The translations under genes were made by a program, and so were the position numbers. From a virus, in IMG/VR virus record IMGVR_UViG_3300029713_000071, positions 1-12,588 of that record: a stretch of 12,588 bases of DNA. One strand, written 5' to 3'. Below, piece after piece: positions 3,415 through 12,388 of the stretch; the first letter of the stretch is position 1; each line of letters opens with the position of its first letter. Under the pieces are notes generated by a model. That model was not told the origin of the DNA. It worked only from the letters and a program-made list of their open reading frames with translations, and searched no databases.

Positions 3415-3758
3415 TTCAAGTAATCATGTAAGCATGTAAGCATACTTACCCCCCTCCTATGGGAAACCTCGGAGAGGTTTAGAGAGGTGGGCGCTGTGAT
3501 TAAGTGGCGGGCTGCTCCGCCTTCGCCCTGGGGGCGTTCGGGGAATGGTTACCGCTGTGTAAGACGCTCCGAATAGCAGCCACTAGCGCGAAAGAAGGAG
3601 TTAGTAGGGCTAATAGCTGTTGCCTTGGTCTGCTTCCCCGAAAACCAGGCTTCTAGCCTTTGGGTTACTAGCCGGTTGAGCGTCCCGGCAAAGCCCCCGC
3701 CGTCTGTCCGCCTGGCAAGCATCCCTAGCCGTTACCCGGAACGCCTTGCACAACGTAC
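3415..3758. other. 344-bp non-coding HNH-terS spacer; probable cos / terminase recognition region
   Basis: It is by far the largest gap inside the head operon, with short GC hairpins (aaacctc-gga-gaggttt, ggcgg-gctgct-ccgcc, cgccc-tgg-gggcg, aggct-tct-agcct). HK97-like HNH-dependent cos phages place cos next to terS. Confidence 0.4.
3427..3442. promoter_or_regulatory. Octamer doublet TGTAAGCA TGTAAGCA upstream of terS
   Basis: Exact tandem 8-mers at 3427-3434 and 3435-3442, followed by an inverted half CTTAC at 3445-3449. Confidence 0.45.
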
Positions 3759-6204: not shown

Positions 6205-7424
6205 GCTGTTGCCCCCTCTGAATCCGCCGGGGCTTCGTCTCCGCTTGCCTTAGCAAGCTGGTAATCGTCCACGATGTCGGTATTTGCGTTGTTAAGGCTC
6301 TGCAAACGCTTGTCGCCGTCATCCACCGGCGGAAGGTTGAGAATCTCCAAAGCCTGGTTAATGGTGAGAATGCCGAACGGCATAAGCTCCCGAACAAGCT
6401 CCAGTTTGGTTTTGTTGCTTGCGAACAGAAGCCGCCCGCTGCCGAACTCAATAGCGTTGCCAAACGCTTGCTCGCGCTCCGTGAAAACCTTGCGCGTGAA
6501 CTCCAGGGAAAGAAGAAGGGCGAACGGCTCAATTACGGATTCGTAGAACGCGCCCCATTCGTCTTCTGAATAGGTCGAATTTACGATTTTCTCCGAAATG
6601 CCCAGGTAGTTGTAAATCTTCGTCGCCGTGGCCTTCGTCTGCTCCGGGTCAACCGTTACCGGCTTGCTGTCAATCGGTATGTATTCGCTCTTTGAATCGG
6701 TCGCAACGATGCCGCCATTGTTGGCAACGTCCAGGTACTCGGCAATAAAGGCTTCCTTGTCGGCCTTTAGCTTCTCGTCGCTGAGAATCTGGGTGTATTT
6801 CAGAATGCCGCGAATGGTCGCGCCGCTCTTGATGCCGTTAATGATTCCTTCGTTTTCGGTGTGCGCAAGCTCCAAAGCCGGGTAAATGGCTTCGTTTGAA
6901 TCGCCTAGCAGCTCGTCGCTGTTGTAGTTCCGGCGCAAGTGGATTAAATCGCAGTACGGCAAAACAACCTCGTTGCCGCTCCTGAAACGGAATTGCACGA
7001 AAAGCCGCCCGCTAGCGTCTGTAAGAAAGTCGGCTTGTACGCAAGTCATAGGGTAAATGCTTCTTACATTGCCGCGTTCGTCCCTGTCCAGGAAGGCAAA
7101 GGCGTTGTTGAAAAGGTAGTAATGCGTGGCAAGCTTATAAAGCATGTCGTAGGCGTTCATGTACGGGTTAGGCTGCGTCTGTAGAAGCCTGTTCAATACC
7201 CGGTCGCCTTCCGCCGTCCCCGCGCCGGTCTTGATAACGTGCGCGCCCTTCAACTTCGCACAGTTGCGCGCGATAGCGTCAACCGCTCCCCGGTAAATAT
7301 CGTTTGCATATGCGCCGCCGCTGAAAGCCGTAAAGGTAGCCATGTTGCCGTTAAGCGTCTCCGTTTTGGCAAGCTGCTTGCTGTTCGGCTTAAACCGGCG
7401 GGCTAGATTACTCCACCAACCCAC
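6201..7424 (-). CDS. Portal protein (HK97/SPP1-type Phage_portal family)
   Basis: I place the start at GTG 7424 (cac at 7422-7424) with GAAGG 8 nt upstream, giving (M)GWWSNLARRFKP...NDIYRGAVDAIARNCAKL... The 75 codons upstream in the track ORF (to 7649) cover repeat DNA and a hairpin and look non-coding. ATG 7343 is an alternative start. Confidence 0.85.
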   Translation of the reverse strand: MGWWSNLARRFKPNSKQLAKTETLNGNMATFTAFSGGAYANDIYRGAVDAIARNCAKLKGAHVIKTGAGTAEGDRVLNRLLQTQPNPYMNAYDMLYKLATHYYLFNNAFAFLDRDERGNVRSIYPMTCVQADFLTDASGRLFVQFRFRSGNEVVLPYCDLIHLRRNYNSDELLGDSNEAIYPALELAHTENEGIINGIKSGATIRGILKYTQILSDEKLKADKEAFIAEYLDVANNGGIVATDSKSEYIPIDSKPVTVDPEQTKATATKIYNYLGISEKIVNSTYSEDEWGAFYESVIEPFALLLSLEFTRKVFTEREQAFGNAIEFGSGRLLFASNKTKLELVRELMPFGILTINQALEILNLPPVDDGDKRLQSLNNANTDIVDDYQLAKASGDEAPADSEGATA

Positions 7425-7465
7425 GCGCTCAACCTTCTTTCGTCTTATTAGTAGGCTTGTAGTAA

Positions 7466-7535
7466 TTCTTACAATCCTACATGTAAAAGAATAACACAAT
7501 AACGCCATACATGCAAGAATGCAAGAATGTAAGAA
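7466..7535. promoter_or_regulatory. Inverted array of octamers upstream of portal; candidate late-operon operator/promoter region
   Basis: TTCTTACA (7466-7473) and ATCCTACA (7474-7481) face TGCAAGAA (7512-7519), TGCAAGAA (7520-7527) and TGTAAGAA (7528-7535) across a 30-bp spacer. Only weak -35/-10 candidates are present (TTGCAT-17-TATTGT on the minus strand). Confidence 0.45.
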
Positions 7536-7948
7536 CGCGCAACCCTGCAAGGTGCTTTCGTTCGCGTCCAGGCGATAGCAAGAGACAAGGCAAGGAATAA
7601 ATGCCCCTGTGGGGCGCTGTGGTGCCGTTTCTAGGCCGGTTTGTCCCAAAGATGGGCGAATACCCTAGAAAGCATTGAAAGACGCTCTAACGGCCTTCTA
7701 TGGCCTTATATGCCGGATGTTCTGCATACGTAGGCATTCGCGCTCAATCTGCCGCTTTCTCGCTGTCTTTCGTAACTCAAAAACTAGCCGTTCGCTTTTA
7801 GTCGAAAGCCCTACTAACAAGTGAGGTTAACTTGCTTCTACTAGTCCCCTCCATGTGCTTGTAAAGATGTAAAGACTTGTAGAACTTGTAGCCTTAGGGA
7901 AAATGTGGTCTTTCCACTGATGGATAGGCGTTTTTCCCGTTTTTCGCG

Positions 7949-8014
7949 TCATCACTTTGACACGGTTCAATCATCACTTTGACACGGTTTGCGGGACACT
8001 TTTACACGGTTTGG
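7949..8014. repeat. Iteron cluster 1: three contiguous 22-bp direct repeats
   Basis: tcatcactttgacacggttcaa (7949-7970), tcatcactttgacacggtttgc (7971-7992), gggacacttttacacggtttgg (7993-8014). Core CACTTT(G/T)ACACGGTT. Confidence 0.85.
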
Positions 8015-8246
8015 GCCATTTGTAAGATTGTAAGTATTCGCATAAAACCATGTAAAAGCGTTGCGCTTTCGTCCAGGGCTAAGAAGTGAAGGCCTGGGAA
8101 CTGTTGAAAAGCTCCTTCCCCTTGAAAGTCTCCCTACCCCTCATTCTTAGCGTGCTTGTTAAAGATGGAATAGGTTGGAATAGATTGGAGGAAACGCGAA
8201 AATCGCTAAAAACCCTGCTGGGTAGGCGTGTTTCGGGTTTTAGGGC

Positions 8247-8312
8247 GGGACACTTTTACACGGTTTACGGGACACTTTTACACGGTTTGCGGGACACTTT
8301 TACACGGTTTCC
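8247..8312. repeat. Iteron cluster 2: three contiguous 22-bp direct repeats; probable replication origin
   Basis: gggacacttttacacggttt + ac/gc/cc at 8247-8268, 8269-8290 and 8291-8312. Identical apart from the last two bases. Confidence 0.9.
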
Positions 8313-8399
8313 CAATTTGTAAGAATGTAAGCATAGCCCCAGAACCATGTAAAACCGTTCCGCTTTCGTCCAGGGGTTCAAGCATTCCGCACCACTGAC

Positions 8400-8425
8400 A
8401 AAAACAAAAACGCCCCGCTGGGGCG
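8400..8425 (-). terminator. Rho-independent terminator after the primase-polymerase gene
   Basis: Minus strand: CGCCCC-agc-GGGGCG (8425-8411), then TTTTTGTTTTT (8410-8400), about 70 nt downstream of the stop at 8496. Confidence 0.75.
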
Positions 8426-8495
8426 TTCTCGTGCCATTTTAAGGCGCTCAAATTCAATTCATGGGCAAATACTCAAAGAGGGGTGAAAAACGGCT

Positions 8496-9533
8496 CTAAA
8501 CGGCTCCTGTGGCCTTTTGGCGCACATATTCGGAGTATGTAACGGGTCTGCTTTCCTCTTCCCCGTTCTTCCTGGCCCTCTTTATCAGTCGCTCTATTTC
8601 GGTTTGTCCGAAGGTCTGGTTACCCCTACGCTTTTCGTCCCAACGTTCCGGCTCTAGCCTGTAAAGGCCGCTTTGCCTAAAGAGTGCGTCTATCTGTGCC
8701 GGGTTTGCGTCCGTGTAAAAGATTAGGTCGTTTAGCAAAGCCGCCCTTGCTTCGCTGTAGCCGTCGTTAACGCCTGGGTAGTCGCTTGTGTCCCCGCTCC
8801 ATAGCTTCGCTATCCTGTGCCGGTTCTGTCCTCTGAACATACGCCCCTTTATCGCGTCCAGGTCGCCGCTAACGGCTTGCTGTGGCTTCGTGTAAGCCGT
8901 TCTAACGGCTTCTTTCGCCGCCGCCTGGGTCTGGTTGCCGCTTTGGTCTACAAAGGCGTTGTAGACGTTTTCCAGGGCTTCCGGCGCGTCCTTAATCTCG
9001 CGCCGCCCCTCGAACACTCTACCGGTAAGGATTATGTAGCGCTCTTTAGCGTAAATCTCTATTTCCGGCTTCTTTCCCGTGCCGCTAAAGTGGCAATCCC
9101 TTAGAAGGCCCCTTTTCTTTTCCAGGATTAGGCCGCTTTTCCGCGCGATGATGTGAAAGCCCCGCCCGCTTTGGCTAACCTCTGTGTAGCTGTCCACGGC
9201 TTCGATAATGTCCGCCGCTTCCGGTAGGATGTAACCGTTTCGGTCTATCACGTTATCCAGGTCTATAACGATGTAATCGTCTGTGAATACAAAGCCCAGG
9301 CCGCGATACGTCCCGCCCTTTACGGCTTCGTAGCACGCTTCAAAGCTCGCCCATGTCTTAGGGTCTGTCGTGCTCGCCGCCCGCCTGGTTACCGGGTTGT
9401 ATGGCCGCTTTAGCTCCGATTGGTCGCCGCCATAGACTAGCCACTTAGCCTTAGCCTTTAGCTCTTCCGGTATGGGCTTGTATCGTCCCATGGTCTTAGC
9501 AAAGCTTGCCGGTATGCGCTTGCGTCTCGCCAT
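8496..9533 (-). CDS. AEP-superfamily DNA primase-polymerase (Prim-Pol) without a helicase domain
   Basis: 345 aa. KWLVYGG...KRPYNP...DPKTWASFEAC...GLGFVFTDDYIVIDLDN (DxD), SYTEVSQSGRGFHII (sGxGxH), EIEIYAKERYIILTG. C-terminal YSEARAALLNDLIFYT...IDALFRQSGLYR...RWDEKR... is like the primase-associated domain of phage/plasmid primases. No Walker A motif. Confidence 0.8.
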   Translation of the reverse strand: MARRKRIPASFAKTMGRYKPIPEELKAKAKWLVYGGDQSELKRPYNPVTRRAASTTDPKTWASFEACYEAVKGGTYRGLGFVFTDDYIVIDLDNVIDRNGYILPEAADIIEAVDSYTEVSQSGRGFHIIARKSGLILEKKRGLLRDCHFSGTGKKPEIEIYAKERYIILTGRVFEGRREIKDAPEALENVYNAFVDQSGNQTQAAAKEAVRTAYTKPQQAVSGDLDAIKGRMFRGQNRHRIAKLWSGDTSDYPGVNDGYSEARAALLNDLIFYTDANPAQIDALFRQSGLYRLEPERWDEKRRGNQTFGQTEIERLIKRARKNGEEESRPVTYSEYVRQKATGAV

Positions 9534-12001: not shown

Positions 12002-12388
12002 TTACGCCCCTTTCTTTTTTCTCGCGTTTTGGTTGCCAAGTTTTGCGCGGCGCATTCGTTCCAGGGCTTCCGGTGTGTAAACGCCCGTCTTTCCCTTGTT
12101 CCAAGGCTCCGCGCCGCCCGGCGCGATGTTCCAACCAAGTTCCGTTAGTCTCATGCTCTTTATTTCTTCTTTTTCCAGCTGGTAGGCCTCTTCCTGCGTC
12201 AAGCCCTCGGCAATGATTAAGTGCCGTATGTTGTCCCAGCCGTATTTCTTGACTTGCTCATAGAACCGGCTCGAATGCCTGTAGCCCTCGCCATGGTTCC
12301 ATCTTTGCTCCGGCTTCTGCTTGGTAACCCCTATGTATATCCGGGGTACCGGGTCGCAGGGCGTGATATGTGCGTATAGCGTGTACAA
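12002..12388 (-). CDS. Free-standing GIY-YIG nuclease with a NUMOD3-like C-terminal motif
   Basis: 128 aa, TTG start at 12388. TLYAHI...RIYIGVTKQKPEQRWNHG (GIY...YIG...R), QLEKEEI (catalytic Glu context), ELGWNIAPGG (GYN-type Asn), then NKGKTGVYTPEALERMRRAKLG. Aligns by eye with the I-TevI catalytic domain. Confidence 0.8.
   Translation of the reverse strand: MYTLYAHITPCDPVPRIYIGVTKQKPEQRWNHGEGYRHSSRFYEQVKKYGWDNIRHLIIAEGLTQEEAYQLEKEEIKSMRLTELGWNIAPGGAEPWNKGKTGVYTPEALERMRRAKLGNQNARKKKGA

Follow-up and report, generated by a model that had tools for sequence, protein, structure and literature searches.

Two non-identical iteron cassettes as a probable replication origin, with a putative winged-helix initiator, in a 12.5-kb capsid-encoding circular element from the human gut

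The window analysed here is the 12,588-nt stretch of IMG/VR virus record IMGVR_UViG_3300029713_000071. It is a complete circle, in which a 78-nt terminal overlap leaves 12,510 bp and 16 genes. The region at 7855-8375, downstream of the primase-polymerase (PrimPol) gene, is probably (about 0.7) the vegetative or plasmid replication origin (oriV) of this element. Judged from the sequence and from a protein model, it would be an iteron-type theta origin made of two non-identical cassettes and bound by p389, a 389-residue protein encoded beside PrimPol. The initial annotation of the window had proposed an origin of phased iterons with an element-encoded initiator, and this is supported by the position of the iterons after PrimPol in the relatives, by the covariation of iterons with p389, and by the RctB-like fold predicted for p389. 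The kind of origin is familiar; what is new is the family of the initiator, its association with a PrimPol that has no helicase part, and the presence of two allelic cassettes in which iteron classes are mixed.

A repeat search and Tandem Repeats Finder (TRF) resolve two clusters of three 22-bp iterons, at 7947-8012 and 8245-8310, each with a phasing of exactly 22 bp. The 8245-8310 cluster has a TRF period of 22, 3.0 copies, 97% matches, and a score of 123. The iteron unit reads AAACCGTGTAAAAGTGTCCCGC on the minus strand, which carries all the genes. The degenerate family consensus AAACCRTGTANAAGTGTYSCGC (minus strand) has six matches at no more than 3 mismatches, compared with 0.01 expected from 200 shuffles, and a scan of the 12.6-kb window with it at up to 5 mismatches finds none outside 7969-8363. 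The six phased repeats first described are thus borne out by the repeat search, TRF, and the shuffles, with a true register 2 nt off the one then given. The two-module layout is also present in L003, L004, and L021 (L numbers designate related loci), which are independent assemblies from other samples, so the layout is not an assembly artefact. Chance or artefact as the source of the repeats is excluded by the shuffle statistics together with these assemblies. An exact 20-mer search of IMG/VR with the iteron gave no match, and megablast of the whole window against phage and plasmid collections gave none either.

Several short-read contigs of the element (L005-L009, from Logan) start and stop inside the iteron array and are about 300 bp shorter than the window. 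The cassettes of these contigs may be collapsed, or their copy number may truly vary between samples. Short-read assemblies often break inside the array, and the cassette count per molecule in nature is therefore uncertain.

Each cluster lies in a larger module (Table 1). Extended repeats of 60-61 nt with 84-87% identity surround the clusters at a spacing of 297 bp, which confirms the larger shared context noted initially. The tandem duplication of about 298 bp proposed for the region holds only for the spacing. The module period is 297-298 bp, while alignment shows homology over only about 225 bp (7855-8078 versus 8152-8375), and the roughly 73 bp between the two modules do not align. Modules A and B are 79% identical to each other, and each is closer to the single full module of another relative, A to that of L016 and B to that of L018, so the pair did not arise by a recent duplication in situ. 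By these identities, the two modules are different allelic cassettes that were brought or kept together.

Module A comprises, in gene orientation, an inverted iteron, an AT-rich spacer with octamers, the iteron triplet, a conserved 'cgcctaccca' box, and AT-rich short repeats of the form TGGAATAGRT (8166-8189). Module B has the same layout with other AT-rich short repeats, namely two copies of TGTAAAGA (7860-7875) and CTTGTAGAA / CTTGTAGCC. The inverted iteron had been listed initially as a shared flank beginning ccatgtaaaa; it is present in both modules, and is not a mere flank, as it matches the iteron in inverted orientation (1 mismatch in B, 3 in A). The triplet of module A is uniform, and two units of the module B triplet differ from it, as the initial annotation had observed. 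Their description as diverged, in the sense of decay, does not stand, since their sequence is the regular, thrice-repeated main iteron of L018. They form a second iteron class, and module B is a hybrid whose first iteron belongs to class 1 and whose others belong to class 2.

AT-rich DNA adjoins the iterons in both modules, and the ~30-bp spacers between inverted iteron and triplet are the most AT-rich of the region. The 40-mer at 8296-8335 is 68% AT, within the element's top 1%, against a genome mean of 47%, and the 40-mer at 8018-8057, at 75% AT, is the second most AT-rich of the whole element. The patches of short repeats beyond the triplets (8156-8195 and 7860-7900) are 65% AT and lie about 60-110 bp from the triplet; together with the spacers, all fall in the element's top 1-5%. 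The module A spacer is a candidate unwinding element, regulator site, or both.

Table 1. Coordinates of the iteron cassettes and associated features in the window
Feature	Position	Strand	Remarks
Module A, whole	8152..8375	-	From alignment; 90% identical to the L016 module
Module B, whole	7855..8078	-	From alignment; 91% identical to the L018 module
Module A triplet	8245..8310	-	Nearest PrimPol; class 1, AAACCGTGTAAAAGTGTCCCG(C/T), 3 x 22 bp; 0, 1, and 0 mismatches to the family consensus
Module B triplet	7947..8012	-	Class-1 unit 7991-8012; class-2 units AACCGTGTCAAAGTGATGA at 7969-7990 and 7947-7968
Module A inverted iteron	8342..8363	+	GAACCATGTAAAACCGTTCCGC; faces the triplet across the spacer; 3 mismatches to the consensus
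Module B inverted iteron	8045..8066	+	AAACCATGTAAAAGCGTTGCGC; 1 mismatch to the consensus
Module A AT-rich spacer	8311..8341		Octamer doublet TGTAAGAA TGTAAGCA at 8318-8333
Module B AT-rich spacer	8013..8044		Octamer doublet TGTAAGAT TGTAAGTA at 8021-8036
Intrinsic terminator	8404..8432	-	Closes the long early operon, which runs from DUF3846 to PrimPol; just upstream of module A; 13-pair stem, then T-run
PrimPol, 345 aa	8496..9533	-	NrS-1-type helix-bundle domain (PF22763, E=1.2e-16); without helicase domain
p389, 389 aa	9536..10705	-	Putative iteron-binding initiator; tandem winged-helix-like domains; uncharacterised family
Octamer triplet	7512..7535	+	TGCAAGAA TGCAAGAA TGTAAGAA; operator-like; in a third module remnant, without iterons, that precedes the portal gene
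Second copy of the ~125-nt 'PrimPol 3' end plus terminator' module	7590..7725	-	Between the origin modules and the portal promoter region

The relatives were gathered through p389 and PrimPol homologues, and their PrimPol is 44-94% identical to that of the window and their p389, where encoded on the locus, 34-92%. Every relative with an intact region after PrimPol has a contiguous triplet of 21-23-bp iterons directly 3' of the p389-PrimPol pair, even when p389 shares just 34-45% identity with that of the window (the L015 locus ends inside its array). In all relatives, the two genes are adjacent and near-overlapping, and the array starts about 130 bp past the PrimPol stop codon, just beyond its terminator. 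Scans at up to 5 mismatches in the window, L003, L004, L013, L014, and L016 detect no iteron outside this intergenic region. The exception is L018, where a single additional iteron of the L018 class is located at the early promoter. This copy (L018:497-518) is inverted, is flanked by four octamers, and lies just upstream of the promoter (TTGACA-18-TATAAT); the window has no such copy. It suggests initiator autoregulation, or looping between origin and promoter, in the L018 lineage.

The layout of the arrays varies. The window clade has 3+3 iterons, L016, L018, and L022 have three and a distant single copy, L013 and L014 have 2+1+3, and L001, L024, and L025 have a longer dispersed array with the contiguous triplet at its end. 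The inverted iteron on the PrimPol side occurs in the window clade, L016, L022, L018, L013/L014, L024/L025, and L001, and was not found in L019, L028, and L033. The 5' half of the iteron, AAACCRTG, is widely conserved, and the 3' half defines the classes GTGTCCCGC, GTGTTGCGC, and GTGATGAC, with further variants in L019, L028, L033, and L034. In more distant relatives on chromosomes, among them those of Staphylococcus and Alkalibacillus, 22-bp iterons are absent, and only octamer-like short repeats occur between the primase and portal genes.

The covariation of iterons and proteins points to p389 as the protein that reads the iterons. A Mantel test of iteron Hamming distance against protein distance in 11 related elements gives r=0.68 for p389 (Spearman 0.72, p=0.0002) and r=0.38 for PrimPol (p=0.0004). 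The values are 0.19 for ParA, 0.16 for the HTH_17 protein, 0.13 for a 113-residue ribbon-helix-helix (RHH)-like protein, and 0.12 for the portal; those of ParA and RHH are not significant. Joint regression yields a coefficient of +17.3 for p389 and -5.3 for PrimPol, so that only p389 has a large and positive one. The initial annotation had named these two proteins as candidate binders, and PrimPol is the weaker candidate.

The candidate readers are separable because modules have been exchanged between lineages. The decisive contrast is that between L018/L034 and the L013 clade. Identity to the window is 71-73% versus 67% for ParA, 58-72% versus 26-27% for RHH, 59-65% versus 39% for HTH_17, 58-66% versus 49% for PrimPol, and 92% versus 80% for the portal. 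L018 and L034 are farther from the window than L013 in p389 only (38-41% versus 58%), and their iterons are the more different ones, with 7-8 mismatches to the window versus 3. The PrimPol gene lies between the p389 gene and the iterons, and plain linkage would therefore favour PrimPol and not p389.

The p389 protein belongs to a large family without annotation. An exhaustive profile search finds 596 representative clusters (E up to 1e-3) that share its C-terminal ~235 residues, for which there is no Pfam model. None of the members sampled is annotated, and the GenBank entries DAM87213.1 and UVX71539.1 are listed as 'hypothetical protein'. Pfam and NCBIfam scans of 77 family members give only scattered matches to winged-helix regulators, and a few distant members match the PHROG families 'replication initiation protein', 'DnaD-like helicase loader', and 'replication initiation O-like'. 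The contig of one distant homologue (L035) also carries a PrimPol-DnaB_C helicase gene and an HTH_17 gene. Searches by tblastn with p389 against phage and plasmid collections, and a scan of GTDB genomes for p389, gave no match.

An AlphaFold2 model of p389 from a 77-sequence alignment has a pLDDT of 88.2 and a pTM of 0.78; a first model from 17 close homologues (pLDDT 59) was poor and was discarded. The model contains units of three helices and a beta-hairpin, typical of winged-helix domains. RctB binds iterons and initiates replication of Vibrio cholerae chromosome 2, and its domains 2-3 resemble plasmid Rep proteins. The top three Foldseek matches of the model in the PDB are RctB domains 2-3 (5tbf, 5ubf), with probabilities of 0.94-0.99 and E=3.8e-3 to 1.3e-2. 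Lower matches are to generic winged-helix proteins (probability <0.5, E>0.4), and a Foldseek search of BFVD gives just one uncharacterised phage protein. Winged-helix domains mediate the binding of Rep initiators in iteron plasmids (PMC4980987). The support for p389 as an initiator is thus at the level of predicted fold and of context, not of family membership, and the probable function of the p389 family is that of an iteron-binding replication initiator.

The partner PrimPol matches phrog_1829, 'DNA primase' (E=3.6e-60), over only the first ~300 of 772 profile positions. PrimPols of the NrS-1 type occur together with the p389 family. Neither p389 nor PrimPol contains a helicase or P-loop domain.

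Several observations weigh against the assignment as an origin bound by p389. Sequence searches of Pfam, PHROG, NCBIfam, and the PDB with the protein yield no match, and by sequence it is linked to no known Rep family. The similarity of its model to RctB is modest, at a TM of 0.33-0.43 and E of about 4e-3, and hhalign of p389 with RepE gives a probability of 0.2%, a comparison in which only a positive result would be meaningful. The covariation is drawn from only 11 related elements with iteron consensus sequences chosen by hand. Iteron classes are mixed inside arrays, with class-2 units in the window and class-1 units in L018, so that a single initiator may accept more than one class, or part of the units may be relics without function. 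The AT-rich patches are short, at only 65-75% AT. DnaA boxes occur in many, not all, iteron-type theta origins, and a search of 7400-8500 for the box TTATCCACA at no more than 1 mismatch found none, although the DnaA-box consensus of the host may differ. The GC skew has no switch at the region, and its cumulative curve falls monotonically because all genes are on one strand; in a replicon of 12.5 kb, such a skew says nothing about the origin.

If the assignment is correct, p389 monomers would bind the phased iterons and the facing inverted copy on one helix face, 22 bp being about two helical turns. This binding would bend the DNA and melt the AT-rich spacer, the short-repeat patch past the triplet (8156-8195, 7860-7900), or both. 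The host replicative helicase would then be recruited, as the element encodes none, and PrimPol, from the same operon, would make the first primers of theta-type replication. The second cassette and the inverted and scattered single copies are probably extra initiator sites for cooperativity or for copy-number or incompatibility control. Handcuffing or copy control by the second iteron set, as proposed initially, is speculation.

A different account of the two cassettes regards them not as redundant but as origins of different specificity joined by recombination, with the element replicated by, or titrating, the initiator of a co-resident related satellite-plasmid. The 8152-8375 cassette carries solely the iteron class that goes with the initiator clade of the element itself, whereas 7855-8078, of the L018 type, keeps two iterons of the class of a very different initiator (36-38% identical). 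This account is unlikely. If true, competing satellites would interact at the level of their origins, through cross-talk or an incompatibility weapon, by means of an uncharacterised tandem winged-helix initiator family.

The arrays could also be transcriptional operators through which p389, as a repressor or activator, regulates promoters in the modules or the late portal operon, with the origin elsewhere, perhaps at the AT-rich short repeats or at the octamers. Each module has a predicted sigma-70-like promoter on the gene strand (TTTACA-18-TACAAT, 8056..8027; TTTACA-18-TACATT, 8353..8324), with its -35 box inside the inverted iteron and its -10 box inside the octamers. The inverted cognate iteron beside the early promoter of L018 and the frequency of the winged-helix fold among regulators also fit this account. 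The module promoters, however, are not kept in the L013 or L019 clades and have no conserved open reading frame (ORF) downstream, and a terminator-like module sits between the arrays and the portal promoter. The p389 protein has 389 residues and two winged-helix-like domains, its closest structural match is to an initiator and not to a regulator, and its place beside PrimPol is fixed. Autoregulation through an inverted iteron is normal for iteron initiators and is compatible with an origin. A purely operator function is improbable.

A centromere for ParA, similar to parS or parC and bound by the RHH-like protein in the manner of ParR/ParG-type adaptors, is another possible role for the 22-bp arrays. 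Phased contiguous direct repeats in two clusters are typical of plasmid centromeres (R1 parC, pSK41 parC, pB171 parC1/2). The element has ParA and an overlapping small protein with CopG-like matches; the usual type Ib place upstream of parA has no non-coding DNA, so a centromere must be elsewhere, and the studied region is the largest non-coding one. The divergence of the iterons does not follow that of RHH or ParA, however: L018 and L034 have similar RHH proteins yet very different iterons, and L013 has the most distant RHH with nearly the same iteron. The TGYAAGNN octamers are a better fit to the 7-8-bp sites of RHH proteins, and they change in the clade with the most diverged RHH. A centromere function of the iterons is thus quite improbable.

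Recognition of the 22-mers by PrimPol instead of p389 would place the start of synthesis at the array through the helix-bundle domain and leave p389 another role. The array is directly 3' of the PrimPol gene, the NrS-1-type helix-bundle domain is present, and such a domain gives template-sequence recognition in pRN1 and NrS-1-type enzymes. PrimPol distance does correlate with iteron distance, but much more weakly than p389 distance and with a negative coefficient in the joint regression, and the iterons of L018 (PrimPol 66% identical) are more divergent than those of L013 (49%). The known motifs of helix-bundle domains are 3-8 nt and not 22-bp duplex repeats. PrimPol is a very improbable reader of the 22-mers. 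A packaging site (pac/cos) for the small and large terminase, suggested by the junction of replication and morphogenesis modules and by the repeat arrays that small terminase subunits often bind, can hardly be right, since a distinct non-coding stretch of 344 bp (3415-3758), 4 kb from the arrays, belongs to HNH-terS-TerL and has an octamer array of its own directly before terS, and since clades with different iterons keep 79-97% conservation in the structural and packaging module (portal Mantel r as above).

The octamers of the spacers are a second class of sites. TGYAAGNN octamer doublets or triplets occur at five sites (0.01 expected by chance), namely 3427-3440, 7512-7535, 8021-8036, 8318-8333, and a copy near 845-860. 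All five are in non-coding DNA and share one strand. Each origin spacer holds one of them, one precedes the portal gene, and one stands immediately ahead of the terS start codon. The octamers of L019 flank a promoter ahead of its portal gene, TTGACG-17-TATAAT, and in the L013 clade, with its most diverged RHH, they are replaced by GATTGAC and AGACAGCA repeats. The TGTAAGNN octamers are a class separate from the iterons and shared with the control regions of late genes. The portal and terS positions, the flanks of the L019 promoter, and the exchange in the L013 clade suggest regulator sites. The octamers are possibly bound by the RHH partner of ParA or by HTH_17, as operator or centromere-like sites. 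The omega protein of pSM19035 is a model for an RHH protein acting on short repeats, and if the octamers were used in this way, a centromere function would also be placed in this region, which is offered as a lead.

A module of about 125 nt (GGCCACAGRAGGCCGTTAGAGCG ... terminator-like hairpin and T-run) occurs three times per genome on the minus strand, at 8395-8530, 7590-7725, and 860-990. The copies overlap the PrimPol 3' end, precede the portal promoter, and follow the head-closure gene, and they are conserved in L013 and L018. The 7590-7725 copy contains a terminator-like hairpin at 7615..7603. RNAalifold gives no convincing consensus structure for the module past the hairpin (-2 kcal/mol). 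Neither an Rfam search of the window at E up to 1 nor a tRNA scan detects anything, so a known RNA gene in the region is unsupported. A conserved small RNA or peptide driven by the promoters of the origin modules was also considered and dropped, as neither the promoters nor any ORF is kept in the L013 and L019 clades.

The early operon has a near-consensus sigma-70 promoter, TTGACA-17-TACAAT, at 796-824 on the minus strand. It is overlapped by ATGGACAA repeats, and TTGTCCAT repeats lie at 790-819. The repeats over the promoter are presumably the operator of a switch that governs the replication and partition genes.

The gene order of the element is DUF3846, a 138-aa ORF, GIY-YIG, ParA, the 113-aa RHH-like protein, HTH_17, p389, and PrimPol, followed by the strong terminator, a 1.07-kb non-coding region, portal, prohead protease, major capsid, adaptor, HNH, a 344-bp gap, terS, TerL, and head-closure protein. 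The 1.07-kb region studied here is by far the largest of only three non-coding regions. ParA matches PF13614 (E=8e-53), the 113-aa protein, whose gene overlaps parA, has weak matches to CopG-like repressors of the ribbon-helix-helix family, and the HTH_17 protein is AlpA/Xis-like and has 66 aa. The GIY-YIG homing-endonuclease-like gene (12002-12388, minus strand) of the early operon is 3 bp upstream of parA and leaves no room there for the usual centromere or operator. No tail gene, integrase, or helicase is among the 16 called genes of the window.

Independent circular assemblies of 12.5-12.6 kb with terminal overlaps exist for the element, and many human-gut samples contain contigs of 12.2-12.9 kb that carry this gene set in various circular permutations. 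Hundreds of relatives of ~12 kb exist. Relatives of its TerL, 55-75% identical, come predominantly from Bacillota genomes. A part of them lie on chromosomal contigs whose gene order from PrimPol to TerL is the one seen here, as in capsid-forming islands, and others on small contigs with a ParA relative, such as L072 (Bacillus ectoiniformans, 14.3 kb) and L046 (a Christensenellaceae metagenome-assembled genome, 12.8 kb).

The proposed origin resembles the iteron theta origins of F (RepE), R6K (pi), pPS10 (RepA), and RK2 (TrfA), and that of V. cholerae RctB/ori2. Common features are several direct iterons of ~22 bp spaced at two helical turns, an extra inverted copy, adjacent AT-rich DNA, a cis-encoded initiator with (here predicted) tandem winged-helix domains, and the joint divergence of iteron and initiator; RctB domains 2-3 are the sole specific PDB fold match of p389. 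Both triplets of the window consist of three direct repeats whose 22 bp fall within the 17-23-bp range of such iterons, clustered in non-coding DNA. The differences are the lack of sequence similarity of p389 to Rep_3 or any other Rep family, the lack of a detected DnaA box, the location of the initiator gene inside a long operon and not beside its own operator, the PrimPol brought by the element, and the two non-identical cassettes with mixed iteron classes.

Satellite systems share other features with the element. The crr of satellite phage P4 consists of two long direct repeats, each with three initiator-binding repeats, and is in this respect like the two three-iteron modules of the element. 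P4 differs in that its repeats are octamers, against the 22-mers of the element, and are bound by the fused primase-helicase alpha; its ori lies on one side of the alpha gene and crr on the other, at a distance of ~4.5 kb, and it is not known to have a separate winged-helix initiator. Staphylococcal pathogenicity islands (SaPI) and related phage-inducible chromosomal islands (PICI) place their ori right after the replication genes, and iterons of opposite orientation surround its AT-rich core (PMC9371898). The element is similar to this pri-rep-ori arrangement in its satellite context, in the place of the origin directly 3' of the replication genes, in the opposed repeats that flank an AT stretch, and in winged-helix recognition, which is predicted here (PMC9371898). 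In contrast, SaPI iterons are 5-6 bp long and the SaPI Rep is a self-loading helicase, whereas the element has 22-bp iterons and no helicase or P-loop. It falls outside the SaPI definition because it lacks a helicase-initiator and iterons of 5-6 bp.

As a whole, the element looks like the recently described capsid-forming satellite-plasmids (cf-PISP), going by its gene content. It has head and terminase genes without tail genes, is circular, has ParA, and has no integrase called, as expected of cf-PISP and capsid-forming PICI. The Vibrio cf-PISP TG54 (PMC13230959) is likewise a small circle with portal, protease, capsid, adaptor, HNH, terS, TerL, and head closure, with ParA and a replication module, and without tail genes and integrase. 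The same source reports cf-PISP only in Vibrio, with RepA in the place of p389 and PrimPol, whereas the present element is of human-gut origin, with TerL relatives chiefly from Bacillota. The element type thus has a published precedent; the occurrence in the gut and in Bacillota, the p389-PrimPol module, and the origin of cf-PISP are not covered in the consulted passages of PMC13230959.

The design is mechanistically familiar and would not surprise a specialist in plasmid replication. The analysis provides a concrete origin and a candidate initiator for tail-less, capsid-encoding circles of ~12.5 kb that recur in many human-gut metagenomes, and a probable function for a sizeable unannotated protein family. 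With the origin and Rep pair known, a minimal replicon or shuttle vector would be feasible. The pair would also open the study of satellite copy number, of competition with relatives, and of the coupling of replication to helper-phage induction.

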